Below, piece after piece: positions 7,501 to 30,266 of a stretch of 31,159 bases of DNA (its first letter is position 1; each line of letters opens with the position of its first letter). The notes below the pieces were generated by a model. The model saw nothing but the letters and a program-made list of their open reading frames with translations, was not told where the DNA came from and made no database searches. Source of the DNA: an uncultured Candidatus Poseidoniales archaeon. GTDB taxonomy: Archaea; Thermoplasmatota; Poseidoniia; Poseidoniales; Thalassarchaeaceae. The stretch covers positions 1 through 31,159 of the forward strand of contig CAZXZO010000021.1 of the NCBI GenBank assembly GCA_964645485.1. The letters run 5' to 3'. A program made the position numbers and the translations under genes.

Positions 7501-10500
7501 GGAATTAGTAATGTCCCATGAGTTTCCTGAAAAAGTCGCTGACAACGGCTCTGCGCGCCGCATTGATTCTCTTTCAATATCCAAATGATTTGGTGCTGGA
7601 CCAAATCCAAACAACCCATTATCTGCAGTTGTCAACCAAATGCCATTGGCTCCAACGTAGCCACCAGTTAGCGAGAACATGTATTCTTGACGAATTACAT
7701 TATGCTGGCTTGAAGTAATATCAACCCAATCAACACCACCATTACTGAGAACGAGTAAAGTAGTTCCATCACTAATAATATCATTAATTGGCCATGCTGA
7801 AAATGACCATGATGGGTGTCCTGTTTCCATCTGATTAGCACCTGCATTCCAATGCATTAGCGGCTCCTCAAAGGTAGCAACGTGCACTCCCCACCAATCT
7901 GCTGCAATCGCCTTGACGTCATTTGATGGCAACATATCTACACGATACTGTTGCCCTGGCTGCATCGTTGTCAAATCGAATGATGTTGCCCCAGGTCTTG
8001 AAGCACCTTCACCATTATGTGATAAGAATAAAGTGGGACCAATTGATATTGTTGAATTACCACTTGAAATCGTTGTACTTGGCGCGTATGCTATACCGTT
8101 TACACGATTCCCAATCAGTCCAGATTGTGCATTGTATGTTGCAACAACTGAATGGCTTGGAACATCCCAGCGAACCATCCCTGCAGGTGTAGCGAGCATC
8201 AGCTCAGTCCCTTCAACCCAAATCTTGTCAATTATTGGCCCGGGAAGTCCATCTTGAGTCGTGATAGAGTCATCCCATGCTTGGGTAGTAGTATTCCATA
8301 CACCAATGCCACCATAAGTTGCAACCCAAATACGATTGTCATACTCAACAAAGTCACGAACGATGTTTGAAGGTAGACCTGCAAGCAGTGAGCCATCTGT
8401 CCAACTTTGAGTGGTTAAATTGTAAACTTGGAATCCAGCAGATGTTGTTGTTGTGCCCATCAGTCCAATTACTAAATCACTACCAGAACGATAGAGTCCA
8501 TCCATCTGATAATGTAGTGGAACCGGGGTTGCTGAAATTTGACCTGTTGTGATATCAACATGGTAAAGTCCAGCACTAGTTGTAACCCACAAATCGTTGT
8601 TAATTGGCAGAATTTCATTGACGATATCCCAAACGAATGGATACGCTTCAATCCACTCGATTGAGCCGTTTGGAAGTAGTTGGCCATGCAGAATCGAGGA
8701 ACCTGAATACTGTTGAGAGTCATCTGCAGATGTCAACCAAACATTTGTCCCACTGAAAGTGACTTCAAGCATTCTGCCGCTTGATAATCCTGCTAGAATA
8801 TCTACTGCACCTTTGTGCAATCCTGTTGAATTAATGATGTCAACTCTGTTGTATCCAGAATCGCCACCAGGTCTGCCAATAATCCAATCAACTTGGCTGG
8901 TGTTAGAAGGTCTAACCTCCATACTTGATCCCTGAGTACCTACATCAATTTTCATCCCCGAACCAAGTTGTCCACCACTTGCAGCGATTCTAGAAATTCC
9001 TCCAGAGCCCCCATCTTCATCGGTGTGTGAAACCATCAAAACACCGTCATGCCAACGCATTCCATCAGGGAATACTTGGTCTGGCATGATACCGTTTGTT
9101 GTCTCTGTAATAGTTCCTAGCCAGTGACCTGTAGTGTAACTAAATCTTGAAATTCCGACATCGTTGCGTTCAAATCCAACGTAAATTACATCGCCAATTT
9201 CATCACAAGCCAAAGCAACTGCATCATCATCGTCTAATCCTCGATTTTGGGTACTACCCTGTGTCCAACCTGATAACCATGAGTTGGTTTGCAAGTCATA
9301 TCTTGCAACACCACCCTGAGTACCGAAGCCTTGGTATCTAGACATTGCAATATGCATTATATCATTACAAACTTCCATTGAGAAGCCAAATCCAGCAGGG
9401 ATATTTGTGCTTCCTGCTGCCCAACTGCTCCAAGTTTGAGTAGTCCCGTTATACTGGAAAATACGACTATTACGATTCCAACCACTGTTTGCCATAGTAG
9501 TATACCACAGATCATCTCCAACGATTTCAATGTCGAAAATTGTATCCTCTGAATTTGAAGGCAGGCCACCATTGTCTGCTGTAAGAGTAGTTGCCCAAGT
9601 GTCATTATACATATCATATCTAGCAATACCTTCGTATGTTGCGAAGTGAATTAGCCCTTGATACAAATCAATGGAACGAATAGGTCCCACTAATACTGTG
9701 TCATCCCATTCATTGAGAAGATTTCCATTGTAGTCAAAGTGCCGATGAACCTTTTCCCCATAGGATGCAAAGATGTGACAAGCGGAGACATTGAGTGGTT
9801 CACATTCACCAGCGTAAACAGAATTGACCCGTAGAATTGAACCGGTTGCATCTAGAGCGTTACCCCAAGTGTCGTTTGCATGGTCCCAGCGAACAACACT
9901 ACCTGCGTCCAAGCCCCACCAACCTGATGGAGTTACACCAATCCACAACATCCCATCAGGGCCTTCTCCAATTCCGTAAACCAGGCCATTTTGATTTATC
10001 TGTTGGCCAGCATCCAAAGATGAGAGTGTTGTCATATTATCAAGGTCATAGCGATAGATATTATCGTTTGACTGGGTCCCTGCCCGTGCTTCTGAGTAGT
10101 ACAGAACATTACCAATAATTACCAGTTCCCCTGGCTCATTCTGACCGTTTGCTCTGCTGAATGTTTCTTCTACAGTCTCATTCACTAAGTCAATCAAACG
10201 GAGCCCAAAATCACCACCAATCCACACACGATGAGTTAGGCGGTCGGGGATTAGGGTCGTTACATCATTGTCAGTCACTAAATTATTTGAATTCGAAGAA
10301 TCCCACTCTTGAAGCCAGACATCGTTAATCCTGTCATACCGAGCAACACCCATTCCGTTCAAACCGATGTATGCAACATCATTGTATTCGTATGTAGGAG
10401 CGTTCCAAGTAGCCTCACCTGCTACCCACACATCAACAACTGTGTCGTTGACAACATCAATTATTCCAGCACCATAATTGGTTCCAGCATAGAGATTGCC

Positions 10501-12918
10501 ATTGTTGAGAATGGAAACTGCAAATACCCATGAAGAAGGTAGACCTTCTGGATTGGAGTAGTAATTCCAACAATTCTCTTCATGTAAATCTGATAGACGA
10601 TATTGACAAGCACCTGCATTAGTTCCAGCATACAGATAATTTGCATCAGAATCTAGAGCGTAAAAGTTTGAAGGATTGAATCCTCCCTGTGCCTGAATGT
10701 GGGTCCATGAAACTCCGTTGTATCGGTCAGCACCGTCAGCAGTTCCAACCCACATTGAACCGCCGCTATCGCGATGTAATGAGTATACATTATTGTTCGA
10801 GATTCCATTTCCACCTCTCGTTGCCCTCCATGTATCAACCACATCACCCGAAACTCGGTCAAAGATTAACACACCGTATCCGTAAAGCCCGAGGTACATT
10901 TGGTTGCCATCAGTTTCCACCGGCATATATGCTACATTATCCATCCCGGTAGAACGCCAAGAAGACAACAAAGTGTCATTTGTGATGTCAATTCGTAACA
11001 CCCCTTGATTGGATGCTATGTATGCGATTGCAGAACGTGCTGCAACCCCTCTGATATTATTTGTAAAAGAGTCAGACCGCCCGGTTGACCAAGACGATGA
11101 TACAGTTTTGTTGACCGCGTCAACTAAGGTTACACCAGCGTTTGAATGGCCAACTACGATTGTATCAGTAGTTACATCAAAGGCTAGATAATCAGCATCA
11201 TTTGAGTTTAGATTATCACTAATCGCTAGATGAGCAATTTGAGTTCCATTGAAAGCAAAATTATAGATTCCGTCATCACTAGTTGCTACCCAAACTGAAT
11301 TGCCATCAGTTTCTAATGCCTGATTGATAGTACCGGTTTCGATTGGTATTAACCAATGATTCAATTGTTTATCAAATCGGTCAATGACTCCATTTCCAGC
11401 AACCCAAACCACATTGTTTACTTCCAATGCATCATTCATTACTGCACTAGTTGGTCCAGATGCAAGTAACATTGTGGAAACGTGAGTCGGTGGGGTCGAT
11501 GGTTCGAAAAGTGCGAAACTTCCACCACCATCCCCAACAAGAATAGTGTCTACACCTGGTGACCTAACGCCACCGTTTGGCCAAGTAATCAAATCTACTC
11601 CATCACGTACTAAACCAACATCTTGTAGTGCCTTACTAGTAGAAAATGCACCCATAGTCATGTTGTAAAAATGAAGTGTGTCGCCAGCCAAGATGTGTAA
11701 CCATTCCCCACTTTGAGCCATTCCACGTACATCATTTGAATCAAGCCAATTTGCATCTGTCCAAGTGGCTAGCCATGAACTAGTTGCTACATTGTAGCGC
11801 ACGATTCCAGCATCTGCTAATCCAATCATTAGGATACCGTTCATCAATTCTAATTGGACTACATCATCACTTGGTAACGAGTTTTGAGTACTCCAAGTAG
11901 ACTGCCATTGGCTGCTTGAGGTGTCGTAACGCATTACGCCACCACCGTCAGTAGCAAGGTAAACTATGCCACCAACTTCCATCATATCTGTTACAATATC
12001 TAAGCCGGAAGATGGGTTACCAGCAACGCTGATTCCATCGGCTATCAAATTCGCCTCATTGGTACCTGCCCAAACTAATCCGGCTGAATCTGTCATCATC
12101 GCTGTAACTATCTCCGAAATACTTCCCGACATACTCGATTCAATTGAAAATGGACCTGAGAGTTCAGTAGAATCTGTTAGCGACCAAGCGCGGAATTTTG
12201 TCGGGCCATCATCAACTGAGACTAGAAGCATATCATTGAGAGTATCAACAACCATCGTACTCGCTCCGGTAATATTCTCTGCCAACTCTATAACGGGTGG
12301 GTCATTAGTTGCATCCAGTTGAACAACTGTTTCGTTGATCAGCAAATACATCCTACCATCTTCGGGATGAAGTGCTGAGGCACTTACATCAAGAGTAAAT
12401 GGTGAAAAGGTGACATATGCATCTGCGGGCCTCAATGCCTCAACAACCAAATCAGTAACTTCGGCATCACCGGGTAGGAGCCAAGATGCCCCTGCATTAG
12501 CATTAGGGGTTAGCCGAGAGGAGTGAGGGTCTGAGCCCATCAAGTCATTCTGTTGACCAAAACCTCCTAATCCTCGCCAATCCATGATTTGTGCTTGAGT
12601 ATCAACAAATGATAGTTGAGGCTGTTCTACCCAAGTGCCATTTGAGCCGTTAACTCGGACTTCAAATGACAAATTCTCAACAAGTGCACCAGGTGCTAAT
12701 GTGAGGTGTAAATCCCCTTCAGCGAGAACTCCGGTTGCAGGGTCTGCACCAACCGCATCAAGACTTATCCAACCAGTATCATTGGTTCCACCTGAACCCC
12801 ATTCTACCGCATTTCTGCGATTAACCACTGTTTCTAATTGCAAAACTGGAGTCAACGATGCGATTAGCATCAACCCGACTAGAAAAAGGGGGACTGTCGT
12901 TCTATTACTTTGAACCAT
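4561..12918 (-). CDS. Giant (2785 aa) single-pass surface protein: signal peptide, many two-component-regulator-propeller-like blades, about six FnIII-like repeats, C-terminal TM and acidic tail
   Basis: Uninterrupted 8.36-kb ORF with a hydrophobic N-terminus. Recurrent blade motifs (LPSDDVVQL, LPSSWVFAV, LPSNIVRDF, LPGPIIDKI, LPSNDVKAI; WxAT, GVxRYD). D-x-P-x-D-x-G...V-x-W repeats. TM LLTILLSLAIVTVLLLAI. Confidence 0.9.
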   Translation of the reverse strand: MVQSNRTTVPLFLVGLMLIASLTPVLQLETVVNRRNAVEWGSGGTNDTGWISLDAVGADPATGVLAEGDLHLTLAPGALVENLSFEVRVNGSNGTWVEQPQLSFVDTQAQIMDWRGLGGFGQQNDLMGSDPHSSRLTPNANAGASWLLPGDAEVTDLVVEALRPADAYVTFSPFTLDVSASALHPEDGRMYLLINETVVQLDATNDPPVIELAENITGASTMVVDTLNDMLLVSVDDGPTKFRAWSLTDSTELSGPFSIESSMSGSISEIVTAMMTDSAGLVWAGTNEANLIADGISVAGNPSSGLDIVTDMMEVGGIVYLATDGGGVMRYDTSSSQWQSTWSTQNSLPSDDVVQLELMNGILMIGLADAGIVRYNVATSSWLATWTDANWLDSNDVRGMAQSGEWLHILAGDTLHFYNMTMGAFSTSKALQDVGLVRDGVDLITWPNGGVRSPGVDTILVGDGGGSFALFEPSTPPTHVSTMLLASGPTSAVMNDALEVNNVVWVAGNGVIDRFDKQLNHWLIPIETGTINQALETDGNSVWVATSDDGIYNFAFNGTQIAHLAISDNLNSNDADYLAFDVTTDTIVVGHSNAGVTLVDAVNKTVSSSWSTGRSDSFTNNIRGVAARSAIAYIASNQGVLRIDITNDTLLSSWRSTGMDNVAYMPVETDGNQMYLGLYGYGVLIFDRVSGDVVDTWRATRGGNGISNNNVYSLHRDSGGSMWVGTADGADRYNGVSWTHIQAQGGFNPSNFYALDSDANYLYAGTNAGACQYRLSDLHEENCWNYYSNPEGLPSSWVFAVSILNNGNLYAGTNYGAGIIDVVNDTVVDVWVAGEATWNAPTYEYNDVAYIGLNGMGVARYDRINDVWLQEWDSSNSNNLVTDNDVTTLIPDRLTHRVWIGGDFGLRLIDLVNETVEETFSRANGQNEPGELVIIGNVLYYSEARAGTQSNDNIYRYDLDNMTTLSSLDAGQQINQNGLVYGIGEGPDGMLWIGVTPSGWWGLDAGSVVRWDHANDTWGNALDATGSILRVNSVYAGECEPLNVSACHIFASYGEKVHRHFDYNGNLLNEWDDTVLVGPIRSIDLYQGLIHFATYEGIARYDMYNDTWATTLTADNGGLPSNSEDTIFDIEIVGDDLWYTTMANSGWNRNSRIFQYNGTTQTWSSWAAGSTNIPAGFGFSMEVCNDIMHIAMSRYQGFGTQGGVARYDLQTNSWLSGWTQGSTQNRGLDDDDAVALACDEIGDVIYVGFERNDVGISRFSYTTGHWLGTITETTNGIMPDQVFPDGMRWHDGVLMVSHTDEDGGSGGISRIAASGGQLGSGMKIDVGTQGSSMEVRPSNTSQVDWIIGRPGGDSGYNRVDIINSTGLHKGAVDILAGLSSGRMLEVTFSGTNVWLTSADDSQQYSGSSILHGQLLPNGSIEWIEAYPFVWDIVNEILPINNDLWVTTSAGLYHVDITTGQISATPVPLHYQMDGLYRSGSDLVIGLMGTTTTSAGFQVYNLTTQSWTDGSLLAGLPSNIVRDFVEYDNRIWVATYGGIGVWNTTTQAWDDSITTQDGLPGPIIDKIWVEGTELMLATPAGMVRWDVPSHSVVATYNAQSGLIGNRVNGIAYAPSTTISSGNSTISIGPTLFLSHNGEGASRPGATSFDLTTMQPGQQYRVDMLPSNDVKAIAADWWGVHVATFEEPLMHWNAGANQMETGHPSWSFSAWPINDIISDGTTLLVLSNGGVDWVDITSSQHNVIRQEYMFSLTGGYVGANGIWLTTADNGLFGFGPAPNHLDIERESMRRAEPLSATFSGNSWDITNSTTPGQRIALIGPSNSAILPSQANSASPNGIPIHQMPLTLSSPVEGAAIWVASHSVNYSGTWNLTELNSNLENEFSLAARRGTLTQEGRDLHIRLQSPLNGTLEVRIKYDWTRSESPIELLDLFDRPDDGGGVLVAEWTPSQDSGWAAYRIYLQEGNWSSMPTSADLAMRAPDARVPMWSTTLAEIATVDGVRIVDGVDIYGVALIEYDDGTLGEPSSIMGPAAASDEVPNPPAWANAGPADGGADGDLYVEWSKCTAIDHAGTRIWAVTQEITDAIGLPTQGNDLTGQANSTVLQLEKGQPYWIALTCVDEGGLHDPANATIVGPVVPTGGINDGIPPSPVENITAYDTPEDEGGRITVEWTPNNEDDCAWHTVLVRPSIADEMTPTSAADFANATIVADCSTNSTIISHWGATPLEDNTLYWVTVVAFDAWGNGDYGNVTVVQVAPEKNLRGTDPPARVNNLSAWDHPQDKGEAIDVSWAATDVDDFGFYVIWASSQPVDNLAATWARCKDDVSACGAIKMDIQYPINSQDGLIGLTMTKALYDGDSVENSNPDTIRPNVPLSVTVTIHDLYGSAFLTGLPSVVVTPIDNRDDIIAPDRLQAPVVTDVPNDNGTAVYVEFELSDASDIDHYEVYSDIIAYTSSGHRQPIMILDRNVEQPILVDMIDGGAAIMSGIPVHIAIVPVDSSGNAHRDLLNVGSGKAIDNSGDDPGGHLPDVDFTIQWSEDGGAIEVEWQELVRTDIRSYRIFVSDSRFENTDEADLAKGGIIGTFWSLEEFNETSQYDNSTHWFIAVSAYDGNAWKHLVQAKELKPYKAPTDGGGDGNDDGEASSGLFDLIDMNTLLTILLSLAIVTVLLLAIRGRSNRSRNEALELAQAAWGLPQEEGWSDNEDGLDPRGPDVDLAGTLMPAASQIQASRESQVTSTTQEAQSGFAQQVETPPTDASRRLAEISEDLFGDTASSSPSSGDSELDSLIDDLL

Positions 12919-12988: not shown

Positions 12989-13085
12989 TAGGGAGTTTGA
13001 ATCCAAATATTCATTCATCTGAATGGGCAATGCAAATATCATAGTAGTGGGGCCGATTCAAATTGACATCGGAGATGAGCATCCC

Positions 13086-15368
13086 GTGAAAGAGAAAAAA
13101 ATCCGCCAAGATGCGCTGGATTACCACTCAGCAAAGCCTTTTGGCAAAATGAAGACTATTCCTACAAAGCCCCACGCCACTCAACGCGACCTGTCGTTGG
13201 CTTACTCTCCTGGGGTTGCCTATCCATGTTTAGAGATTGAAAAAAATCTGAACAATGCCTACAGATACACCGCCAAAGGAAATCTTGTCGCGGTAATCAC
13301 CAACGGGACAGCAGTTCTTGGGTTAGGAAATATTGGTGCTTTGGCAAGTAAACCGGTTATGGAAGGCAAGGGATTGTTGTTCAAGGCCTTTGCTGATATC
13401 GATGTGTTTGATATTGAAATCGATGAAACAGACGTTGACAAATTTGTTGAAACCGTCAAGCGAATTGCACCTACATTTGGTGGTATCAATTTGGAAGACA
13501 TCAAAGCACCAGAGTGCTTTGAAATTGAACGCCGCTTGAAAGAAGAATTGGATATCCCGGTTATGCATGACGACCAGCATGGAACCGCAATTATATCTGG
13601 CGCGGCGTTGCTCAATTCGCTTGAATTAGTCGACAAAGATATTTCACAAGTGAAAGTAGTAATTTCTGGTGCGGGTGCGTCGGCGATTTCTTGTGCTGAC
13701 CATTGGTTACAACTTGGAGTCAAAATTGACAATATAAAAATGATTGATTCCAAAGGAATAATCACAAAAAAGCGGTCTGAAGCGGGTGAACTCTCAACCG
13801 AAAAAGATCGATTCGCGATTGATGGAGAAGGGGGTGACCTTGCCTTGGCTATGGCTGGTGCTGACATCTTCCTTGGTCTTTCAAAAGGAGATATTGTTAG
13901 TCCAGATATGCTCCGTTCAATGGCTGAAAAACCGATAGTTTTCGCATTAGCAAATCCTGAACCTGAAATCATGCCTGATATCGCTTTAGCCGCCCGCCCG
14001 GATGCAATCGTTGCTAGCGGGCGGTCCGATTTCCCCAATCAAGTGAACAACGTTCTTGGATTCCCCTACATTTTCCGTGGTGCGCTAGACTGCATGGCAA
14101 CAAAAATTACTCAAAATATGAGAATGGCTGCAACCCGCGCCTTAGCCAACTTGGCAAAAGAGGCAGTTCCAGAGGAAGTTAGCCAAGCTTATGACCTTGA
14201 TTTCATTTCCTTCGGTAAGGACTACATCATTCCAAAACCATTTGACAGGCGCGTACTCGTGGGAGTTGCCTCAGCAGTTGCACAAGCGGCAGTTGAAGAT
14301 GGAGTTGCAGGCATTCCAGAATCAAAATTTAACATGGCATCGTATCAAGAAGAACTCGAAGCAAGGTTAGGATTAACCCATTCAGTAATGCGCACAGTGA
14401 TGAATCGCGCCAAGTCTTCTCTCAAGAGAATTGTTTTCCCCGAAGGTGATGACCCTCATGTTCTACGAGCGGCACATGAATTAGCCCATGAGAAAATTTG
14501 CATTCCAATACTTCTCGGGCGTCCTGATGTTATTGATGAACTCAAAGAAGAATACAATCTTGATTTTGAATGTGAAGTGATCAACCCCATTCAAGACCCT
14601 CGACGGAAGGGGACTTACCGAGATGGGTTGTTTGAGTTGCGAAGTCGTAAAGGGTTGACCATTATTGATGCCCAGAGAATTCTGAAATCTCGTACTTACT
14701 TTGGTGCTATGATGGTTGAAATGGGAGATGCTGACGGTTTCGTTGGTGGTTTGACTCGCGCCTACCCGACATTTCTCAAGCCTTGTCTAGAGGTGATTGG
14801 AACCTCGGGGGATGCACACCGTGTTGTTGGGATGTATATGATGGCAGTCAATGGGAAATTATTGTTCATCGGAGATGCTACAGTAAATGTTTATCCTGAC
14901 GCTAGAACTTTGGCAGAAATATGTGTTCAAACAGCACGTGTCGCAAAGCGATTTGGAATCAAACCCAAAGTAGCGGTGCTGTCTTTCTCTAATTTTGGCT
15001 CAAGCCGTGGACTGCGCTCAACTCGATTGGAAGATGCTATCGAAATCGCTCGCGAATTAGACCCATACATCTTGATTGATGGACCTATGCAAGCAGATAC
15101 TGCACTTTTAGAGGATATTCAGAAACAATATCCATTCATGGAATTTGATGGGGCTGCAAACGTCCTCATTTGCCCGAATCTCGCGGCCGCGAATATCGCA
15201 TACAAATTACTAGACCACCTTGGAGATGCGGAGATGACTGGCCCTATTCTAGAAGGGATGGCAAAGCCTGTACAAATCCTTCAACAGGGCGATGGAGTCA
15301 GAGAAGTAGTCCACATGGCGGCGATTTGTTCTGTGGAAGCACACCGCCATGAAATGGAGCGACTTTAG
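13086..15368 (+). CDS. maeB: NADP-dependent malic enzyme with C-terminal phosphotransacetylase-like domain
   Basis: ALDYH, LSLAYSPGVA, NLVAVITNGTAVLGLGNIG, KPVMEGK, GGINLEDIKAPECF, MHDDQHGTA, GAGASA, SDFPNQVNN, then the PTA-like RIVFPEG...IDGPMQAD. A likely GTG start at 13086 (GGAG upstream) gives 760 aa. Confidence 0.95.
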   Translation: MKEKKIRQDALDYHSAKPFGKMKTIPTKPHATQRDLSLAYSPGVAYPCLEIEKNLNNAYRYTAKGNLVAVITNGTAVLGLGNIGALASKPVMEGKGLLFKAFADIDVFDIEIDETDVDKFVETVKRIAPTFGGINLEDIKAPECFEIERRLKEELDIPVMHDDQHGTAIISGAALLNSLELVDKDISQVKVVISGAGASAISCADHWLQLGVKIDNIKMIDSKGIITKKRSEAGELSTEKDRFAIDGEGGDLALAMAGADIFLGLSKGDIVSPDMLRSMAEKPIVFALANPEPEIMPDIALAARPDAIVASGRSDFPNQVNNVLGFPYIFRGALDCMATKITQNMRMAATRALANLAKEAVPEEVSQAYDLDFISFGKDYIIPKPFDRRVLVGVASAVAQAAVEDGVAGIPESKFNMASYQEELEARLGLTHSVMRTVMNRAKSSLKRIVFPEGDDPHVLRAAHELAHEKICIPILLGRPDVIDELKEEYNLDFECEVINPIQDPRRKGTYRDGLFELRSRKGLTIIDAQRILKSRTYFGAMMVEMGDADGFVGGLTRAYPTFLKPCLEVIGTSGDAHRVVGMYMMAVNGKLLFIGDATVNVYPDARTLAEICVQTARVAKRFGIKPKVAVLSFSNFGSSRGLRSTRLEDAIEIARELDPYILIDGPMQADTALLEDIQKQYPFMEFDGAANVLICPNLAAANIAYKLLDHLGDAEMTGPILEGMAKPVQILQQGDGVREVVHMAAICSVEAHRHEMERL

Positions 15369-19861: not shown

Positions 19862-20563
19862 ATGGAGGTCACAGCACCAACACCTACAATAGGGACCGGC
19901 GACAGAAGAAATCCTATGGCACTACTGAAGCAGTTAGGAAGCCGTCATGCCCTAATCGGCGTAGCGGTTGCCGGATTGACTGGTTTGGGTTCATTGACGG
20001 CTGGTATTTTGCCATGGAATTGGTCAATGTCTGGCACCATCAGTTCATCTCACAATCGCAGTTGGGAACACCCATTGAGAAGCAAAATTCTCGATGCTCT
20101 TGACTCAAACCCGGGTATTTGTTACCGCCAATTACAACGTAATCTAAATGTTGCAAACGGCACTTTGCGGCATCACCTTGATGTATTGCAGACACAAAAA
20201 ACGGTTACTACAATGCCAGTAAATGGTAGAACTTGCTATTACGCGGGAGCACCAAGTCAGATTGAGATTCTTAGAGATATGAATATTGAGGATGAGAAAG
20301 CAGCAGAAATGCTTCCGGTTGGACTTTCACAAGTACAACGAGAAGTCGTTACACGCCTTGTCCAAGACCCACTACCAAAATCCCAAGCCTCACTAGCGCG
20401 CGACATTAGTCGTAGTCGTGCCTCAGTAAATAGCGCAGTACTCGTGCTTCGCCGACGAGGGATTCTATCCTGCACCCATTTAGATTTGGCAAACCACCTA
20501 CACGGTCTACGCACTGGTGCACTTGATTACGAGTGGATTGATGAGCGACCAATCGCAGCATGA
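19862..20563 (+). CDS. Winged-helix regulator with an N-terminal hydrophobic segment and two HTH modules
   Basis: Hydrophobic ALIGVAVAGLTGLGSLTAGILPW; HTH1 HPLRSKILDALDSNPGICYRQLQRNLNVANGTLRHHLDVL; HTH2 KSQASLARDISRSRASVNSAVLVLRRRGIL. Starts 13 bp after the HxlR stop. Confidence 0.75.
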   Translation: MEVTAPTPTIGTGDRRNPMALLKQLGSRHALIGVAVAGLTGLGSLTAGILPWNWSMSGTISSSHNRSWEHPLRSKILDALDSNPGICYRQLQRNLNVANGTLRHHLDVLQTQKTVTTMPVNGRTCYYAGAPSQIEILRDMNIEDEKAAEMLPVGLSQVQREVVTRLVQDPLPKSQASLARDISRSRASVNSAVLVLRRRGILSCTHLDLANHLHGLRTGALDYEWIDERPIAA

Positions 20564-20579
20564 ATCCCCAATTCGAAAG

Positions 20580-20681
20580 TGAATTAATAGTGAATTTACT
20601 CACTCTGAGCAGGGTCACACCTACTTAGTAACATAAATCATCGATTCGTGAATGAATTAATAGTGAATTTACTCACTCTGA
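20580..20681. repeat. Perfect 29-bp direct repeat TGAATTAATAGTGAATTTACTCACTCTGA x2, period 73 bp, each containing AGTGA-N6-TCACT
   Basis: Copies at 20580-20608 and 20653-20681, with a 44-bp spacer. Confidence 0.95.
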
Positions 20682-22860: not shown

Positions 22861-22961
22861 TAAACCGGTGGAGGGAGTGTCATGCTACTGAACTTACCCG
22901 CTCATTTATCAAAAATTGATGATAGAAGCGGTTATGAATGGTTGTCCGGTCGCCGAGCCGA

Positions 22962-23576
22962 ATGGCTGAACAGAGTGCTCCCCTGCTAGCGTACGAGGAC
23001 TATGAAGCGAACGCTGTGCACATAGGTACTCAGACAAAGAGTAAGGACATGCAGAACTTCATTTCCAAGACTGAAACTGATGGTGCAACAATCCACCTAA
23101 TTGACGTAACTAAGACTGACGAAAGAATCAGATTCGCTGCTAATTTCATCAATAATTACGAGGCGCGTGACATTCTTGTAGTCAGCGCTCGTCAATATGG
23201 ACAGCGCCCGGCTCGCATGTTTGCTCAAGCAATCGGTGCTCGCCAAATAGTTGGCAGATTTATCCCTGGTACTCTTACCAACCCTAATCTACGCACTTAC
23301 ATTGAACCACGAGTTATCTTCGTGACAGACCCGCAAGCAGACTCTCAAGCACTTTCAGAGGCTGTCAAGAGTGGTTTACCAGTAATTGGAATCTGTGATA
23401 CCAATAATCATCTTCGCAACGTTGACTTCTGCATCCCTGCTAACAACAAAGGTCGTAGAAGTCTAGCACTAGTTTACTGGCTGCTATCTCGTGAAATCCT
23501 CAAGGCTCGAGGGGAAACAGATGATGCTACATGGGCACATCACCAAAAAGTTGAGAATTGGGAATCTTCCTTCTAG
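22962..23576 (+). CDS. rps2: 30S ribosomal protein uS2, archaeal type
   Basis: VHIGTQTK, ILVVSARQYGQ, GRFIPGTLTNP, EP...VTDPQAD.QA..EA, CDTNN, IPANNKGRRSLALVYWLL.REIL. The start may be 22938 or 22962. Confidence 0.97.
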   Translation: MAEQSAPLLAYEDYEANAVHIGTQTKSKDMQNFISKTETDGATIHLIDVTKTDERIRFAANFINNYEARDILVVSARQYGQRPARMFAQAIGARQIVGRFIPGTLTNPNLRTYIEPRVIFVTDPQADSQALSEAVKSGLPVIGICDTNNHLRNVDFCIPANNKGRRSLALVYWLLSREILKARGETDDATWAHHQKVENWESSF

Positions 23577-23675: not shown

Positions 23676-24914
23676 ATGATGGGCGATTCTTCAAGTGCTG
23701 GTGACGCCCCTTCAGGTGACACTATTGCTCCTGATGATTCCTTATCATTCGAGGCGACAAGAAGTGATGATGGGATCTGGCGAGATTCAGAAGGCGTGGC
23801 ACTCCCTGTTTCAGCAAGCGACTTAGAGCGCCACGCTTACTGCCCTCTATCATGGCATTTAGCTCGCTCTGGAGTAAAAGGTGCTGGCGATGCCATTGAA
23901 CTTGGTAAACAACGTCACAAAGAAATTGAGGAAGCGATGTCAAACTACCAAAGCCAGGACCTGAAAGCAAGAAAAGAGATGGTCATATGGACGTGGTGGT
24001 TCGCTATTGTGGTAACATTAACCCTTGACACTGCTGCATTTTTCTTCGTGGAAGAGGGAGTGATTGCTGACAGCGACTTTGGCCTTTTTGCCCGTTATCT
24101 TGTCCTTCTAGCCTTGGTTTGGTTAATCTTAGCGATACTTCTCCTATTCATACCTTGGAGAAGATTCCTCGGAACACCTTTCGGATTGGCCCAACCACCA
24201 ACTCCCTCTGAATTTGATATTGTCGACCTTGAACTCTACCTCTTTGAGAAAGATAACTCCAATTCTAGTGGCTGGTGGTATGGTGGGAAAGTTGAGTTCA
24301 CAATCTTACTTGGAAGTTTGACGATTGCTCTGCATGGATTAGCACTTTTTGAGGCTCAAGAGCGCTCAATTGCAACTTTTGTGCTTTTGGTAGCCACTCT
24401 TGGCTGGACATTTATTGCATCTTGGCAACTTCATAAAGGATTACTGGCAAATATTCTTGCTGAAGAAAAAAGCAAGGAACTTGGAATGGACAGTGGTTCG
24501 GTGCTAGCATACAATGATGACTCCAACTCTTCTGAACTGCTGAAAGACGACGTCACGGGTATTAGAGGGCGCCCAGACCAAATCATCATATTCGAAAATG
24601 AGGTTGTTCCTGTTGAACAAAAAACGGGAAAAATTCCTGCACAACCACACTTAAGCCATAAAATCCAATTGTATGCCTACCTTCATCTTGTTTCTAAAAT
24701 AACTAATAATCAACTCAAATATGGAATTCTTCGTTACGGAGAAGATGTGATCCACAACATAGGTTGGGGAGAAGGGGAGAGTAAAGTCTTGATGACTCAT
24801 CTCAATGAAATTCAAAGATTGATGGTTGAAGGTGGCGCTAAAAGAGACCACAATAGGCCAGGAAAGTGCCGAAATTGCTCTCGTCGGCATCGCTGTCCAG
24901 AAGCCCTTGACTAA
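23676..24914 (+). CDS. Cas4-family PD-(D/E)XK nuclease with four Cys Fe-S ligands, interrupted by a four-TM insertion; no cas operon
   Basis: SASDLERHAYCP (C56), G.QRH (H81), GIRGRPD (D301), PVEQK (E314, K316), HKIQLYAY (Q331/Y335), C398-x2-C401-x5-C407. Hydrophobic helices at about aa 103-125, 137-160, 208-225 and 232-252. Confidence 0.85.
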   Translation: MMGDSSSAGDAPSGDTIAPDDSLSFEATRSDDGIWRDSEGVALPVSASDLERHAYCPLSWHLARSGVKGAGDAIELGKQRHKEIEEAMSNYQSQDLKARKEMVIWTWWFAIVVTLTLDTAAFFFVEEGVIADSDFGLFARYLVLLALVWLILAILLLFIPWRRFLGTPFGLAQPPTPSEFDIVDLELYLFEKDNSNSSGWWYGGKVEFTILLGSLTIALHGLALFEAQERSIATFVLLVATLGWTFIASWQLHKGLLANILAEEKSKELGMDSGSVLAYNDDSNSSELLKDDVTGIRGRPDQIIIFENEVVPVEQKTGKIPAQPHLSHKIQLYAYLHLVSKITNNQLKYGILRYGEDVIHNIGWGEGESKVLMTHLNEIQRLMVEGGAKRDHNRPGKCRNCSRRHRCPEALD

Positions 24915-25666: not shown

Positions 25667-28351
25667 TCAATCTTCACTATCCTTGCGGCGGCGTTTTGGG
25701 CGTCGGCGTTTTTCTACTGGCTCTGGTTCAGTCTCTGAAATCTTTGCCGGTGGAGGTGATTCACCATCATCTACTGAGAAGTCTGTGACTTCTTTTTTAT
25801 CCTTCAATACATTACCAACTACGGTATTATCAGGGATTAATTCGACTTCAACCTCTTGGCCGGGTAGTATTCCATCTTCGCCTGTGATATCAAAGATATC
25901 AGCCCGAATATCTGCATCGGATGCGCTTAACTCTACTTCGGAATCTTGCAGATGGCGACGTCCTTCCTTGTCTCCAATGATATCGTCAAGGTCAACCTTT
26001 TCCGTTTCGTGAGCAGACCGCATTGATGTAATCACTAATTCATCTTCTGCCTCTTCTTCGGTCAAATCAACTTCTTGTTGCTCACGGTCCGCTATTGCAG
26101 CATCAATTTCTTGCTCAGCCTCTGTGAGATGTTCATCCCAATCAGATTCTAACTGTTCCTCAGCATATCCCATTTCAGAAATTGCATCGCCGTAGTCTTC
26201 TGCACCACGCACAATCTCATCATCGTCTTCCTCAACTTCTTCCTCAACCTCGTCGTGAGCGATTTCCTTGCGTGTACGGCGCTCATAGAAGGAAGAGACA
26301 TCCTGAACAGTACCGCAATATGGACAGTACTCCATTACATCTGGAATGTTAGAATTACAAGATTCGCAATCATGGAATTGAGATAGCCCTTCAACAAGGT
26401 CAAACTCACAGTATGGGCAGAATTCCTCATCACCTTCAATTTCACCATCACAAGATGGGCAGTAATCGTAAGTTTCTCTCTCACCCTCTTCTGAATCCAC
26501 TCGTGTCAACTTAATTGCTGCTGCTAGAACTATAATTAACAGTAAACCTGCAAATATAAACAACAATGTTGAAGCAGTGAAATTTGATGATTCGGTCTGC
26601 GGACCATCATTACTGGTGGCTGAAATCGACCACGCTGCTGTCCATGTTGCTACAGAACTTCCTGCTGGAACAATATACAACTCAAAAGAACCGGCCTCAT
26701 CAGCCTTGAAACTACAAAGTATAGAATTAGTTCCAACTGATGCTGTGAAATTAACGCTCGTGGTGCTCAATACTTCCCCTTCTCCATGATTAAGACAGGT
26801 GAACACCTCGCTTCCGGTACCCTCGTCTGAAACAATGTCAATGGTGTATGTGTAGGTGTTTCCAACCACCAATGGCGTATGGGCTGGAGTCCAACTTTCA
26901 CTTTCTTGCAGAAAGCGCAAGCGAAGATTGCTATGCAATGTTACTGAACCAAAGGCGGTATTATCGTTGATATTGGAATCGTAACTAATAGCATTGGCCT
27001 CCCAACTTGCACTAAATTGTAATGCCCCTTCTTCACCACTTGGACCCACTACTGTAAATGTGAAAGTACGCTCTTCCCCACCTGGAATCCCCAACCCTAA
27101 CAACGGTTGTAAGGAATTGCCATCAAATGATGCTGATAAATCACCAATCACAGCTATTGAACCGGTATTAATTACTGTAACATCAAAATTAACCTGCTCA
27201 CCTGCTAAAATTGAATCACTCGATGCCGAGGCGTGAGGCGAAACCACCACATTAGGTTCTGGATGGATTGTGATTTGAGTGTCAAGATCATCATTGAACT
27301 GGATTGATTGTGGGACCTGCCTACTTGGGTCTATCCGCACTCTCAAAGTGTGAACACCGGGCTCAAGGGAAGGCATTTGTGACAAGGTCAACTCTTGCTC
27401 CCAATTCTGTAATGTCGCACTCTCGGTAAAGGTCATATCAAAGGAAATAACGCTGGTTTCAAGTTCGCCATCAACTAGATAGATTCCTACGGTTATCGTG
27501 CTATCCCCTGTCCCACCCATTCTGAGGATTTGACCACTAAGAGTCCAAGGACCACTAAGAGTTCCAAGAACTGTCTCTACTGTAATCTCAGGATTTGGTT
27601 GCTGATGATGGAGATAATCAGGACTAGAAAAAACGGTGAATGGTAGAGGAGTTGCGGCATTGTTTCCTGTGTCTGACTCCGTTATCCCATCAGATGCTGA
27701 ATTTGCAATTGCACTAATTTGATGATTGCCTGCCAATGGAGCGTTGAATGAAGTTTGAATTGTAGTTGAAAAACCAGCAAGCAAAGGTGAAACCGCGAGT
27801 TCTGTCAGGGTTGCACCATCAAGTTGAACCAACAAATGTGATGCTGGTGAGTCGAGGTTCCCTTGGTTAGTGACATCGACTGAAAGATTTACAACATCGC
27901 CTTGATGTAAATCCGTTGCCGGTGTGATAGAAATATTGCTGGCAATTAAATCAATTTTACCAGCGACTTCGAACTGTTTAGAAACTGAATTCGTTGAACC
28001 GTTGTGAGTAACAACAAGAACAACTGCATGAGTACCGAATGGCACATCTGACCAAGTACCAGTTACCTGCACAAAACCGCCGCCTGAGATAACTACTGTT
28101 TCAGTATGGAATGCAGTATTCGCTTGACTATCTGGATGTAGTGAAACATCAATATTTGTGATACTTGTAGAAATGTTGTTTGTTAATGTCGCGGTGACTT
28201 CAACATCATCACCTTCGGAAGGAGATGAAGGAGAGATGGCAAGCCCATCAACACTGAAATTGACATCACCCGCATTTGCAGCATAAATCACTGGCACCAT
28301 TAAGAGGAGCAATAAAATTCCCGAAGTGGTGATGGCTGATGCCCGCCCCAT
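25667..28351 (-). CDS. Single-pass surface protein: signal peptide, CARDB/Ig-like domains, TM, cytoplasmic double zinc ribbon, long acidic tail
   Basis: Start moved to ATG 28351 (MGRASAITTSGILLLLLMVPVIYA); the longer ORF overlaps the divergent gene. CARDB patterns DL..SNI...P...GDVVNLSVDVTNQG and E...NN. CPSC/CPYC/CESC/CPYC after the TM. Confidence 0.85.
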   Translation of the reverse strand: MGRASAITTSGILLLLLMVPVIYAANAGDVNFSVDGLAISPSSPSEGDDVEVTATLTNNISTSITNIDVSLHPDSQANTAFHTETVVISGGGFVQVTGTWSDVPFGTHAVVLVVTHNGSTNSVSKQFEVAGKIDLIASNISITPATDLHQGDVVNLSVDVTNQGNLDSPASHLLVQLDGATLTELAVSPLLAGFSTTIQTSFNAPLAGNHQISAIANSASDGITESDTGNNAATPLPFTVFSSPDYLHHQQPNPEITVETVLGTLSGPWTLSGQILRMGGTGDSTITVGIYLVDGELETSVISFDMTFTESATLQNWEQELTLSQMPSLEPGVHTLRVRIDPSRQVPQSIQFNDDLDTQITIHPEPNVVVSPHASASSDSILAGEQVNFDVTVINTGSIAVIGDLSASFDGNSLQPLLGLGIPGGEERTFTFTVVGPSGEEGALQFSASWEANAISYDSNINDNTAFGSVTLHSNLRLRFLQESESWTPAHTPLVVGNTYTYTIDIVSDEGTGSEVFTCLNHGEGEVLSTTSVNFTASVGTNSILCSFKADEAGSFELYIVPAGSSVATWTAAWSISATSNDGPQTESSNFTASTLLFIFAGLLLIIVLAAAIKLTRVDSEEGERETYDYCPSCDGEIEGDEEFCPYCEFDLVEGLSQFHDCESCNSNIPDVMEYCPYCGTVQDVSSFYERRTRKEIAHDEVEEEVEEDDDEIVRGAEDYGDAISEMGYAEEQLESDWDEHLTEAEQEIDAAIADREQQEVDLTEEEAEDELVITSMRSAHETEKVDLDDIIGDKEGRRHLQDSEVELSASDADIRADIFDITGEDGILPGQEVEVELIPDNTVVGNVLKDKKEVTDFSVDDGESPPPAKISETEPEPVEKRRRPKRRRKDSED

Positions 28352-28490
28352 ATACTCTCGAGACCACATACTGCACTTCAACCCTGCCGATTGATGCCGC
28401 CAAGCAGCAATGTCTGCAACAAGGTATTCTACAAGTAGAATACAAAGCAAGGGTTGAAGGCAAAGGTTAGGTGTCCTCAATTTGGTGACC

Positions 28491-30266
28491 ATGCGACGCG
28501 CTGGTGTGATTGTTGCAATTGTCGCAACCTTAATGCTCGCCCTGATACCTATTGGTGAAGTCACTGCAAAGGGTGGAAAAGTATCCGCTCCTACTTTTGG
28601 AACAGGTCCCAGCCAAGGTGAAACTTTAGCGGGAAGCGTGACAATTCTAGTTTCCACAACTAGTGGATTAGATGCTGTGAGCCTCGAAATTTTTGATGGG
28701 TCTACATGGTCTGAGGTAACAAATATCACATCCTCTACTTCTTGGCTTTACAACTGGGATTCATCTTCGGTTAGTGATGGAGGTTACCAATTCCGAATCG
28801 AAGGATGGGCTAGTGGTGTATCTAGTGGTGTAACAAATGGTGCGAACTTTGTAGTTGATAATACCGTCCCGAGTAATCTTGTTTTAGTTACTGAAAACCC
28901 TGATTATGGCGATGGTTTGGCTATTTCAACACGGGCTTGGTATGCTATTCCTAGCACCGGAACACTCTCTTTCACATGGAACGCAAGCGACACAAACCTT
29001 GACCATGCAACCCTTACAGATGTACCCACTCCTGGCTCTCCGTCTAACGATGGGCCTGGTTTTCTCGCTCATAGATGGGACTGGTCGACCGGGAGTTTCC
29101 CTTCTCAAGGAACTTGGGACCCTGTCTTAACTGTCTATGATGCAGCCGGACTTTCCTCAACTGAAACCCGATATATCGGCATTGACACTGTTGGCCCGAC
29201 TGTAGGAACTCCAACCCTTTCGATTAGTAGTGATTGGAACAATGCGCAGAATCTCGTGTTCTCAAATCTGTTCAATGGCGCTTCTGATAATAGTGGCTCG
29301 GGAATCGCTGGCTATGAAGTCAGAGATTCTGCTGATGCCACTTGGAACTCTATCGGCATTGGTGGTTCAGGAACATTAAGCCTACAAGAAGGGGTGCGGA
29401 CAATACAATTCCGTGCGATTGACAATGTTGGCAATCGTGGCACTAGTAGCGATTACACCGTTAAAATTGACCATGTTGCGCCAGTTGCGGGAGGATGGCT
29501 TGTACCAGAACTAACCACGGCTCTGACAGGAACTGTTGACATCACAGTTCAAGCAAGCGATTCTTTGTCTGGAGTTGACTCTTCATTGACCAAAATCCAA
29601 TACGGATTTGACTCTGATGGAGTCGGTCAAACGCCAGATATTACTGGCTCTTGGATAGATGTAGGATATGGATTATCAACTAGCCTCTCATCATCAATTG
29701 ACTGGTCCACCAAACAAGGACAATTCCTCTCACTCCGTACAGTTCTAGTAGATAATGCTAGCAATTCTGACAACTCTGTAACTCAACATTTCATGGTTTT
29801 CCCAAGCCTTGATCTGTCTTGGAATAGTGCTTCTGTGGATCGTTTGGTTGTGCGTGCGGGAACCGAAGGAAAAGTGAATGTGACATCTACTCTTGTGAGT
29901 AATGAAGGATATTCCGGTAGTGTCGTTGTTAGATTACAAACTGCGCCAGCAGACCGAAACAACAACGTTGCTTGGACAACAATTGAGACTAGAACTCTGC
30001 AGCCTGGTTCATTATCGGATTTACAAGAACAATTGGTTTGGAGCATCACGATTTTGAATCCTGGAGAAATCGATATTCGCTTGACTGCTGACTCTTCCGA
30101 TTCAATTTCAGAGAGAGATGAAGCCAACAATGATGCCTACATGGTGGCTCAAGGAGCAGACCAAAAGATGGTTGGTTCAGTGGCTTCGTTTTCACCAACT
30201 TTGCTGATGGTAATCCTTGCTGGATTATACTTTGGATTACAGATTTCTAGATCTAAATCTGAATAA
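28491..30266 (+). CDS. Secreted Ig-like/CARDB domain protein with C-terminal membrane anchor
   Basis: Signal peptide MRRAGVIVAIVATLMLALIPIGEVTA; Ig-like repeats ending DNT.P / DT.GP / DHVAP; TIQFRAIDNVGN; CARDB-like SERDEANND; C-terminal TM. Start 28482-28491. Confidence 0.85.
   Translation: MRRAGVIVAIVATLMLALIPIGEVTAKGGKVSAPTFGTGPSQGETLAGSVTILVSTTSGLDAVSLEIFDGSTWSEVTNITSSTSWLYNWDSSSVSDGGYQFRIEGWASGVSSGVTNGANFVVDNTVPSNLVLVTENPDYGDGLAISTRAWYAIPSTGTLSFTWNASDTNLDHATLTDVPTPGSPSNDGPGFLAHRWDWSTGSFPSQGTWDPVLTVYDAAGLSSTETRYIGIDTVGPTVGTPTLSISSDWNNAQNLVFSNLFNGASDNSGSGIAGYEVRDSADATWNSIGIGGSGTLSLQEGVRTIQFRAIDNVGNRGTSSDYTVKIDHVAPVAGGWLVPELTTALTGTVDITVQASDSLSGVDSSLTKIQYGFDSDGVGQTPDITGSWIDVGYGLSTSLSSSIDWSTKQGQFLSLRTVLVDNASNSDNSVTQHFMVFPSLDLSWNSASVDRLVVRAGTEGKVNVTSTLVSNEGYSGSVVVRLQTAPADRNNNVAWTTIETRTLQPGSLSDLQEQLVWSITILNPGEIDIRLTADSSDSISERDEANNDAYMVAQGADQKMVGSVASFSPTLLMVILAGLYFGLQISRSKSE

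Follow-up and report, generated by a model that had tools for sequence, protein, structure and literature searches.

A membrane-inserted, CRISPR-independent Cas4-family protein of Poseidoniales archaea, predicted to be a nuclease held at the cytoplasmic face of the membrane

The gene and its product

The open reading frame at 23676..24914 (+) of our window (the whole stretch of DNA that was analyzed, 31,159 nt) encodes a protein of 412 amino acids plus the stop (P0001), at exactly the coordinates given in an earlier note on this DNA. The note had read the product as a Cas4/AddB-type nuclease interrupted by membrane helices. The parts of the gene are as follows.

23676..24914 (+): whole ORF, putative membrane-inserted Cas4-family nuclease, assigned from profile matches and homologues
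23676..23801 (+): N-terminal tail, aa 1-42, variable (dN/dS 0.72) and disordered in the model (pLDDT < 50 at residues 1-15)
23802..23975 (+): N-half of the nuclease, aa 43-100, with SASDLER-x3-YCP; pLDDT 91-98; aligns with the N-terminus of 4r5q and 8d3l
23841-23843 (+): codon of C56, within SASDLER-x3-YCP, invariant in 85 sequences
23916-23918 (+): codon of H81, putative metal-ligand His on the helix after the C56 motif, at least 90% conserved in 85 sequences
23982..24050 (+): TM helix 1, aa 103-125, with conserved D118; from hydropathy; unbroken from the H81 helix (model helix 72-126)
24087..24152 (+): TM helix 2, aa 138-159; from hydropathy; model helix 132-158
24153..24290 (+): inter-hairpin loop, aa 160-205, predicted cytoplasmic from conservation, charge bias and the model
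24291..24353 (+): TM helix 3, aa 206-226, with conserved E207 and H220; from hydropathy; model helix 204-226
24366..24431 (+): TM helix 4, aa 231-252; from hydropathy; extends in the model (230-268) back towards the nuclease core
24432..24545 (+): linker from TM4 to the core, aa 253-290, with conserved Y279-x-DD; from conservation and dN/dS analysis
24546..24911 (+): catalytic core, aa 291-412, from Pfam, NCBIfam and PADLOC Cas4 matches, invariant columns, dN/dS of 0.06 and the fold match
24576-24578 (+): codon of D301, in the core motif GRPD
24615-24623 (+): codons of E314-Q-K316, core motif
24666-24680 (+): codons of Q331-x3-Y335, core motif
24867-24896 (+): codons of the Cys triad C398/C401/C407, core motif

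The protein has only four cysteines, C56 and a C-terminal triad (C398, C401 and C407, spaced C-x2-C-x5-C), and the other motifs of the Cas4/RecB type (H81, D301, E314-x-K316 and Q331xxxY335) are all intact; every hallmark that the note had listed was confirmed where it had placed it. In Pfam, residues 291-408 matched both PF12705 (PDDEXK_1; 39.5 bits, cut-off 22, 8e-10) and PF01930 (Cas_Cas4; 27.7 bits, above the cut-off of 22.7), and residues 44-116 gave a weak Exo5-like N-terminal match. The Cas4 profiles of PADLOC also matched the protein (best 1.4e-17), and the score against TIGR00372, the NCBIfam equivalog for CRISPR Cas4, was 55.7 bits, below its cut-off of 65. A phmmer search of the PDB sequences with the single protein gave no match, and a profile of 85 relatives was required to reach them. 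This profile matched the solved Cas4 structures 4r5q, 8d3l and 4ic1 through both the N and the C segments, with H81, D301, E314, K316, Q331 and Y335 aligned with their counterparts in 4r5q and 8d3l. Y55, C56, G298, P300, K316, H328, Q331, C398, C401 and C407 are invariant in the 85-sequence alignment, while H81, D301 and E314 are conserved in at least 90% of it. Two motifs are specific to the family: SASDLER ahead of the first Cys and HRNH ahead of the Cys triad, the latter being R390-x-H392 of our protein (RDH here, HRNH in most members).

Membrane helices and topology

The block that separates the N-terminal Cys/His segment from the core is about 150 residues long. Hydropathy places four hydrophobic segments in it, at about 103-125, 138-159, 206-226 and 231-252, and the AF2 model has helices at 72-126, 132-158, 204-226 and 230-268, in agreement with the four-helix insert described in the note. 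The TM block alone (residues 95-270) matched no Pfam family, and the protein gave weak DUF4328 and DUF2721 matches, both below their cut-offs.

The TM module consists of tandem repeats of a hairpin, present in 1, 2 or 4 copies and in many members as a single hairpin. When scored with a family hairpin HMM, 53 of the 68 homologous hairpins outscored every shuffled or reversed control; hairpin 1 of our protein (TM1+TM2) scored 14.4 bits, and the best shuffled or reversed control 8.5. Three polar residues are conserved in the TM helices of Poseidoniales, D118, E207 and H220, and of these D118 and H220 occupy the N position of the ALNG motif of the repeat, near the hairpin turn. The inter-hairpin loop opens with PWRR-x3-G-x-PFG-x-AQPP, which is invariant in Poseidoniales. 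The rest of this loop, an acidic stretch at about 176-205 between TM2 and TM3 and on the predicted cytoplasmic side, is variable (pLDDT < 50, dN/dS 0.29) and is missing from 4-TM relatives outside the order.

Every one of the 46 full-length representatives carries 2, 4 or 8 TM helices ahead of the core, and an even number brings both nuclease halves to the same side of the membrane, as the note had argued. The density of K+R was 0.216 on the nuclease side and 0.083 on the opposite side, where the loops are only 5-20 residues long; in the two-gene forms described below, the basic residues come after the N-terminal TM of the C-half. From the even TM count and the charge bias, both nuclease halves and both termini are predicted to be cytoplasmic.

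Predicted fold

The AF2 model was built from the 85-sequence alignment (pLDDT 82.5, pTM 0.80); an earlier one, from 20 close relatives, had a pLDDT of 57 and was discarded in its favor. In VIA-align comparisons, residues 25-412 of the model superposed on residues 5-200 of the Cas4 in 7mi4_A with a Z of 20.0 and an rmsd of 3.1 Å over 182 aligned residues, and the Z was 19.4 with 8d3l_I. The two other Cas4 structures, 4ic1 and 4r5q, gave Z values of 12.6 and 9.8 as a pair, and the Fe-S nuclease domains of Exo5, Dna2 and AddB/AdnB gave values of 12-14, while the structural matches of the TM region were generic long-helix proteins. A homologue of 399 aa, modeled independently in the ESM Atlas, superposed with TM-scores of 0.80/0.82 over 368 residues. 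In the predicted structure the two halves together rebuild one intact Cas4 domain, which places C56 at the position of the first cluster cysteine of Cas4. The note had proposed structure prediction to see whether C56 joins C398, C401 and C407, and the superposition implies that it would close an Fe-S cluster with them. Prediction of a complex with two protein copies gave a score of 0.00, which has no controls and bears neither way on oligomerization.

Distribution, forms and selection

We found more than 900 homologues of the same length. Of 41 related Poseidoniales (Marine Group II) genomes, 40 have the gene, each as a single copy; within Thermoplasmatota, 144 of the 201 genomes contain a match. 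It was not found in one entire Thermoplasmatota family (0/23 genomes) or in the streamlined genera of the host's own family, and we therefore consider it dispensable. The survey of the split architecture that the note had called for found it across the phylum, in forms with 2, 4 and 8 TM helices, which include a protein of the cultured Aciduliprofundum boonei (ADD08116.1), and in two-gene forms. The latter occur in 11 loci, where the gene is cut at a hairpin turn into two overlapping genes and each half retains one TM anchor (in the Methanothrix type, the N-half has 90 aa and the C-half 184 aa); they belong to some Thermoplasmatota, to Methanothrix and to some bacteria-like contigs, and some of these loci carry the names Methanothrix or Methanosarcinales. 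In one family member there are two TRAM domains, a type of domain that as a rule binds RNA. A search for fused forms beyond 722 aa found none, which is weak evidence, and among viral contigs the patterns used turned up no relatives.

The TM and split forms make up one clade of the tree (SH-aLRT 100), and 4.4 changes per site lie between it and the classical Cas4 of the same phylum. The Poseidoniales sequences form one clade, and the gene looks largely vertically inherited. Values of dN/dS were 0.13-0.20 for the TM hairpins, 0.14 for the N-half, 0.06 for the core and 0.72 for the N-terminal tail, and the TM hairpins are thus under purifying selection. In two DNA runs, possibly the source samples themselves, per-run contigs cover the gene from end to end with no joints. 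Together with the number of same-length homologues and the selection on the hairpins, this argues against chance or an assembly error, and the chimera that the note had named as a possible refutation is not the case. The membrane-inserted Cas4 is a conserved family, neither an oddity nor a chimera.

Genomic neighborhood and independence from CRISPR

Across 38 diverse loci we saw no conserved partner gene. The only recurrent neighbors were L15e, present in 7 loci, and a Trm1-like methyltransferase, present in 5, and neither a pilus, channel, ATPase or helicase gene nor Mre11/Rad50/HerA, replication or division genes showed a recurrent link. The neighbors form a stable housekeeping synteny (uS2, Dus, L15e, Trm1) and not defense islands. 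General co-transcription with uS2 was considered and rejected, since uS2 is divergent in 77/77 Poseidoniales loci from genome contigs; in a second set of 18 loci of the order it is divergent in 11 and co-directional in 7, and it is co-directional with the gene in this window. Searches of the gene's own genome, which is 82% complete, did not find ComEC (PF03772), NurA, the Translin family or Cas1. The genome encodes other large PDDEXK_1 proteins.

The note had seen no CRISPR link, and this holds well beyond the locus: the window contains no cas gene and no CRISPR-like array, and Cas1 was found in just 1 of 81 genomes of the order. Classical Cas4 and the TM form coexist within the same genomes of other Thermoplasmatota (for example G086 and G052). 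The TM family, a deep paralogue of CRISPR Cas4, is CRISPR-independent, and our gene fits the definition of Solo-Cas4 sensu Hudaiberdiev et al. 2017, which covers genes of the Cas4 family that lie outside CRISPR-cas loci. As the note had anticipated, public annotations of the homologues read CRISPR-associated Cas4 or Dna2/Cas4; the former label is misleading because the genomes concerned are without CRISPR.

Proposed function and alternatives

Our best explanation, to which we give a probability of about 0.6, is that the gene encodes a membrane-tethered, cytoplasm-facing and CRISPR-independent DNA nuclease of the Cas4 family (RecB-like PD-(D/E)XK, four-cysteine Fe-S type) that acts at the membrane. 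Fe-S binding, DNA cutting and action on DNA at or reaching the membrane are predicted properties. The two TM hairpins would sit inside the Cas4 fold, between the H81 helix and the strand with which the catalytic core begins. One Fe-S cluster would be shared by C56 of the N-half and C398/C401/C407 of the C-half, and H81 of the N-half would make one active site with D301/E314/K316 of the C-half. Because the His helix runs straight into TM1 and TM4 returns as a long helix, the nuclease would stand on a two-helix stalk at the inner membrane face. The cluster of the soluble Solo-Cas4 of Methanosarcina mazei is reported (PMC12501428) to be dispensable for cleavage, so that a "stapling" of the fold may not be needed for catalysis.

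As to its role, we tentatively prefer the confinement of a potentially toxic end-processing nuclease to a place where it would encounter linear or foreign DNA on its way into the cell (from viruses, plasmids or the environment) and not the nucleoid. The toxicity rationale comes from the M. mazei protein, whose over-expression is reported to reduce growth (PMC12501428). The genomic context, with no conserved partner in the 38 loci, lends the proposed role no support. Housekeeping synteny, vertical inheritance and absence from the viral contigs searched are not typical of antiviral genes, and we regard a housekeeping role at the membrane as about equally likely. The enzyme would then serve repair, recombination or chromosome maintenance, with the anchor for regulation or localization and incoming DNA uninvolved; it might clear or process chromosomal DNA where the cell divides or where that DNA is attached to the membrane, the anchor keeping a dangerous nuclease off the bulk nucleoid. 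A single-copy, largely vertical gene with conserved synteny (uS2, Dus, L15e, Trm1), the single Poseidoniales clade, the repair and replication nucleases Exo5, Dna2 and AdnB/AddB among the closest structural relatives, and the failure to find NurA in the 82%-complete genome all fit such a role, and repair genes are also typically lost in streamlined genomes. However, the 38 loci showed no recurrent link to Mre11/Rad50/HerA, replication or division genes, the other large PDDEXK_1 proteins of the genome could do end resection, and repair gives no reason for a membrane anchor that is conserved throughout the phylum.

A more elaborate form of the entering-DNA role, in which hairpins of several subunits could form a membrane ring above a Cas4 toroid, a portal that would thread entering linear DNA and destroy or process it, is by analogy conceivable and in our view doubtful. 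The channel proposed in the earlier note seems improbable. There the nuclease lies on a DNA-uptake or injection route, the TM bundle is the channel or its partner, the acidic loop is a sensor, and DNA is degraded or made single-stranded as it crosses the membrane. The predicted placement of the nuclease directly at the inner membrane face on its two-helix stalk would suit such a route, as would the conserved polar D118, E207 and H220 in the Poseidoniales TM helices and the rings that some soluble Cas4 form (the toroid of SSO0001, in a title cited in PMC13621843, and the high oligomer of M. mazei Solo-Cas4, PMC12501428). Yet the hairpin copy number varies (1, 2 or 4, with a single hairpin in many members), the outer loops have just 5-20 residues, D118 and H220 sit at the ALNG N position by the hairpin turn with no pore-lining pattern, the 82%-complete genome yielded no ComEC, and no pilus, channel or ATPase neighbor recurs in the 38 loci. 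The supposed sensor loop is predicted to be cytoplasmic, is variable and is confined to the order. The split Cas4-type nuclease and the even topology of the note were supported, and its channel and sensor were not; the processing of DNA on its passage through the membrane may still be a role of the protein. We give scarcely any credence to an ordinary CRISPR adaptation Cas4 that is encoded apart from cas1-cas2 and works in trans. The public annotation as CRISPR-associated Cas4 and the Cas4 profile matches would agree with it; against it are the Cas1 counts (not found in the own genome, 1/81 in the order), the TIGR00372 score below its cut-off, and the long branch to the classical Cas4 with which the TM form coexists in other Thermoplasmatota.

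Significance

The Cas4 family has been known for soluble nucleases that serve in CRISPR adaptation and DNA repair, and to our knowledge no nuclease acting on DNA at the archaeal membrane has been characterized so far; the protein described here is a candidate for one. It would also be an example from nature of how the fold of a soluble enzyme is reassembled across a membrane anchor, an idea for which the natural two-gene versions offer a test. The family is near-universal in Poseidoniales, which rank with the most abundant archaea of ocean surface waters, and its members in cultured Aciduliprofundum boonei and in Methanothrix make directly testable proteins available. If the portal reading were true, the family would serve archaea throughout a phylum, the CRISPR-lacking Poseidoniales among them, as an innate barrier or as an uptake nuclease. 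We found no description of a TM-containing Cas4 in the literature, and the word "transmembrane" is nowhere in the main text of the Cas4 phylogenomic survey (PMC5704561); as far as the literature found goes, the membrane-inserted, CRISPR-independent Cas4 family is an undescribed architecture.

Comparison with known systems

The likeness to EndA, NucA, ComEC and Kiwa is limited to the handling of nucleic acid at the membrane where foreign DNA enters, and we found no sequence or fold relation between these proteins and the TM family. Competence nucleases face outwards, whereas the TM-family nuclease is predicted to face the cytoplasm. Kiwa is described (PMC11785009) as a membrane-embedded complex that senses phage-induced changes of the membrane. 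Unlike membrane defense complexes, the TM-family gene is not in a defense island and is without a partner gene.

Exo5, Dna2 and AddB/AdnB share with the TM family a first cluster Cys that is far in sequence from the C-terminal triad, so that the cluster would tie distant parts of the domain together; in AddB the Fe-S cluster acts as a staple. Their inserts are soluble, or they have helicase partners, and no TM helices occur in the insert, whereas our protein has neither a helicase domain nor a helicase neighbor.

The CRISPR Cas4 proteins (SSO0001, 4ic1; Pcal_0546, 4r5q; type I-C, 8d3l; the Geobacter Cas4-Cas1 fusion, 7mi4) have what the model predicts to be the same fold, together with the catalytic His, D, ExK and QxxxY and the 1+3 cysteine pattern. 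The TM family differs from them in that its fold is broken by 2-8 TM helices, in having no link to cas1, cas2 or arrays, and in its specific SASDLER and HRNH motifs. Solo-Cas4 (PMC5704561; PMC12501428) is likewise a Cas4-family gene outside any cas locus. That of M. mazei is reported (PMC12501428) to carry a [4Fe-4S] cluster and to cleave dsDNA with Mn2+ or Mg2+. The described Solo-Cas4 members are soluble, whereas the TM clade is defined by its conserved insertion in the membrane.

Sequence hallmarks and predicted structure

The nuclease gene occupies 23676..24914 on the plus strand and encodes 412 amino acids, exactly the position given in the earlier note, and the Cas4 hallmarks described there are all in place: the only cysteines are C56, C398, C401 and C407, and H81, D301, E314, K316 and Q331/Y335 are present. 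Residues 291-408 match both PDDEXK_1 and Cas_Cas4 over the Pfam cut-offs, residues 44-116 give a weak Exo5-like Pfam match, and the NCBIfam cas4 equivalog scores 55.7 bits, under its cut-off of 65. The four TM helices placed by the note between the first cysteine and the core were recovered as four hydrophobic segments (103-125, 138-159, 206-226 and 231-252).

An AlphaFold2 model with 20 close relatives reached a pLDDT of 57, and with 85 diverse relatives a pLDDT of 82.5 and a pTM of 0.80, the low-confidence parts being mainly residues 1-15 and 170-199. The H81 helix and TM1 form one continuous run (72-126), and a second long helix (230-268) leads from TM4 back in the direction of the core. 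VIA-align superposed model residues 25-412 on the Cas4 domain of 7mi4_A (residues 5-200) with Z 20.0 and an rmsd of 3.1 Å over 182 aligned residues, and matched the type I-C Cas4 (8d3l_I) with Z 19.4; the next matches were Exo5, AdnB, Dna2 and SSO0001 at Z 12-14. Foldseek agreed with these fold matches, and a 399-aa homologue modelled in the ESM Atlas shares the overall shape (TM 0.80/0.82 across 368 residues). Given the superposition on Cas4, the two halves are predicted to rebuild one Cas4 domain with C56 at the place of the first cluster cysteine.

Membrane topology

The K+R density is 0.216 in the nuclease-side segments vs 0.083 on the other side, where the loops have only 5-20 residues. 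Because of this charge bias, the basic residues that follow the TM of the C-half in two-gene forms of the family, the lack of a signal peptide in the N-half and the assembly of Fe-S clusters in the cytoplasm, we place both nuclease halves in the cytoplasm as the probable arrangement; the note had expected them on one side of the membrane. The "acidic loop" would therefore also be cytoplasmic; it is variable and specific to the order, which argues against the sensor role once proposed for it. The PWRR...PFGxAQPP motif just before it is invariant in Poseidoniales.

An authentic gene

The nuclease aligns end to end with more than 900 proteins that are about 400 aa long; their named sources are Poseidoniales/Thalassarchaeaceae, and they carry the plain labels that the note had guessed ("Cas4" or "Dna2/Cas4 domain-containing protein"). 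One copy is present in 40 of 41 genomes of the order (17/17 among those of high quality), and per-run contigs from two DNA runs, which may correspond to source samples, span the gene without joints. Rough NG86 estimates of dN/dS are 0.13 and 0.20 for the hairpins, 0.14 for the N-half, 0.06 for the core, 0.29-0.40 for the loops and 0.72 for the N-terminal tail, so that selection acts on the TM block to a degree comparable with the enzyme's N-half. The homologues, the copy numbers, the unbroken contigs and the hairpin dN/dS together rule out the chimeric assembly of the TM part against which the note had cautioned. Over the variable tail (window 23744-23834), contigs of DNA sequencing run X1 fragment into several short alternative pieces, which suggests strain-level polymorphism.

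Breadth of the family and its hairpin repeats

Searching 1.84 billion representatives with a profile yielded 97 matches below 1e-30, and 144 of the 201 Thermoplasmatota genomes surveyed contain a family match. The full-length forms are:

2 TM helices, about 270-285 aa, e.g. Poseidoniia outside the order of the window
4 TM helices, about 320-345 aa, e.g. Aciduliprofundum boonei ADD08116.1
8 TM helices, about 500-600 aa, Thermoplasmata

The TM count is even in all 46 full-length representatives examined, in agreement with the even number on which the note had relied. With an HMM of 42 core-proximal hairpins (consensus motifs ALN(S/G) and ALVWLIGA), 53 of 68 other hairpins outscore every shuffled or reversed control; judged by these scores, the hairpins are homologous tandem repeats. 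D118 and H220 of the nuclease occupy the N position of the ALN(S/G) motif. One metagenomic representative of 635 aa (P0211) has 8 TMs and, at its C-terminus, a pair of TRAM domains (PF01938, 1.5e-15). Domains of this type usually bind RNA, a hint that the substrates of the family perhaps extend beyond DNA.

Natural two-gene and soluble forms

In five metagenomic loci and six Thermoplasmatota genomes the nuclease is encoded by two genes, and the break falls at the hairpin turn. An N-half ORF of 79-102 aa, with the SASE-x3-Y-x-YC segment, the His helix and a C-terminal TM helix, abuts or overlaps a downstream C-half ORF of about 170-185 aa, which has one N-terminal TM helix, the core and the Cys triad:

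L125:5753-6025 and 6001-6555, split pair (other pairs: loci L128, L129, L131, L133, L135-L138, L140 and L141)

Relatives of the L125 C-half (P0333) have Methanothrix or Methanosarcinales as source names, and some split loci adjoin bacterial-type genes, e.g. SLT and a SpoIIIAA-like ATPase, from which we infer that those loci are bacterial. In two metagenomic loci (L129:111-770 and L131:1151-1801), the gene immediately upstream of the split pair, in the same orientation, belongs to the Translin family (PF01997, 1.2e-6); in L129 it overlaps the N-half ORF. The three genes may form an operon that connects the nuclease with a ring protein that binds nucleic acids. No Translin match was obtained in the window's own genome. 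Genome G059 encodes a soluble, uninterrupted member of 205 aa without a TM helix (L139 / L196, G059:C2:204256-204663 region).

A quick ML tree on the concatenated nuclease parts, with the phylum's classical Cas4 included, unites all TM, split and soluble forms in one clade (SH-aLRT 100), within which Poseidoniales are also one clade (100). Split and soluble forms branch from within the fused forms (96), so that fission and hairpin loss look derived under this rooting; the soluble form, which falls among split and 2-TM forms, suggests a secondary loss. TM number shifted several times in the tree, whose deep branches are unresolved.

Genomic neighbourhood

The gene order HxlR-HTH-HTH-Dus-uS2-[nuclease]-199-aa protein-CARDB proteins is kept in 80 Poseidoniales loci. 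In the window, the neighbours of interest are:

22938-23576 (+), uS2 gene, co-directional with the nuclease gene
25667-28729 (-), CARDB-domain protein, kept in synteny with the nuclease across Poseidoniales
28482-30266 (+), CARDB-domain protein, likewise kept in synteny

The uS2 gene is co-directional in 7 of 18 loci of the order in one locus set and inverted (divergent) in the other 11, while it is divergent in 77/77 Poseidoniales loci (0/77 co-directional) of a second, contig-based set and inverted in three examined genomes without the nuclease gene, a pattern that suggests a local inversion in some members of the order. The nuclease was found neither in those genera of its own family that have small genomes, where three examined genomes show a gap of about 80-100 bp between uS2 and the 199-aa gene, nor in 23 genomes of one other family of the phylum. 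Outside the order the neighbours vary, with L15e in one case, NTPase_1 and Trm1 in another, and pyruvate:ferredoxin oxidoreductase and an MBL-fold protein in a third. A comparison of 38 loci, drawn from about 30 families, showed recurrence for L15e (7 loci) and a Trm1-like gene (5 loci) only, with no conserved partner gene and no defence island.

Zinc ribbons and a long, acidic C-terminal stretch are further features of the 1020-aa CARDB protein; as called, the two CARDB ORFs share about 250 nt, so that one start is probably mis-set. A 50-nt direct repeat occurs twice (86% identity, spacing of 73 nt) between genes, upstream of a 360-aa HTH gene (20559-20681), and may be a regulatory site. A giant ORF of 2785 aa (4561-12918, -), with only beta-propeller-type Pfam matches (PorZ_N, Reg_prop), presumably encodes a large surface protein. 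The ORF at 13023-15368 (+) joins a malic enzyme to a phosphate acetyltransferase-like domain (MaeB type), and the genes around it belong to ordinary metabolism (an aminodeoxychorismate-type synthase, a class IV aminotransferase and a PLP decarboxylase).

Relation to CRISPR adaptation and possible role

The window contains no cas gene and no CRISPR-like array, as the note had observed for cas1/cas2 and arrays. Cas1 was not found in the window's own genome (82% complete), and of 81 genomes of the order one gave a match. This match (G001:C35:950-1792, same genus, E 8e-84, 550-aa open frame) could represent a Cas1 of CRISPR, a fusion of Cas4 with Cas1 or the integrase of a casposon. Elsewhere in the phylum, classical Cas4 (PF01930, E 1e-45 to 1e-59) and the TM form occur together in one genome, e.g. 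G086 and G052. Judged by the scarcity of Cas1 and this co-occurrence, the TM form is a separate paralogue and not an adaptation Cas4.

Our reading, to which we give a probability of roughly 85%, is that the predicted protein is a membrane-tethered, cytoplasm-facing nuclease of the Cas4 family, its two halves brought back together because the TM helices between them are even in number. The role we favour is that of an end-processing nuclease that would be spatially confined at the membrane and would there meet arriving DNA; that it serves housekeeping at the membrane is about equally likely. According to PMC12501428, M. mazei grows more slowly when its soluble Solo-Cas4 is over-expressed. The note's idea that the TM bundle is a channel or sensor is unlikely, because the number of hairpin repeats varies and the outer loops are very short.

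No description of a TM-containing Cas4 was found in full-text literature outside subscription journals, where an earlier one may exist, or by a term search of the Cas4 phylogenomics paper; the note, too, knew of no characterised protein with this architecture. The nuclease model shares its fold with the Cas4 of 7mi4 and 8d3l. In the tree, 4.4 changes per site separate the family clade from the phylum's classical Cas4.
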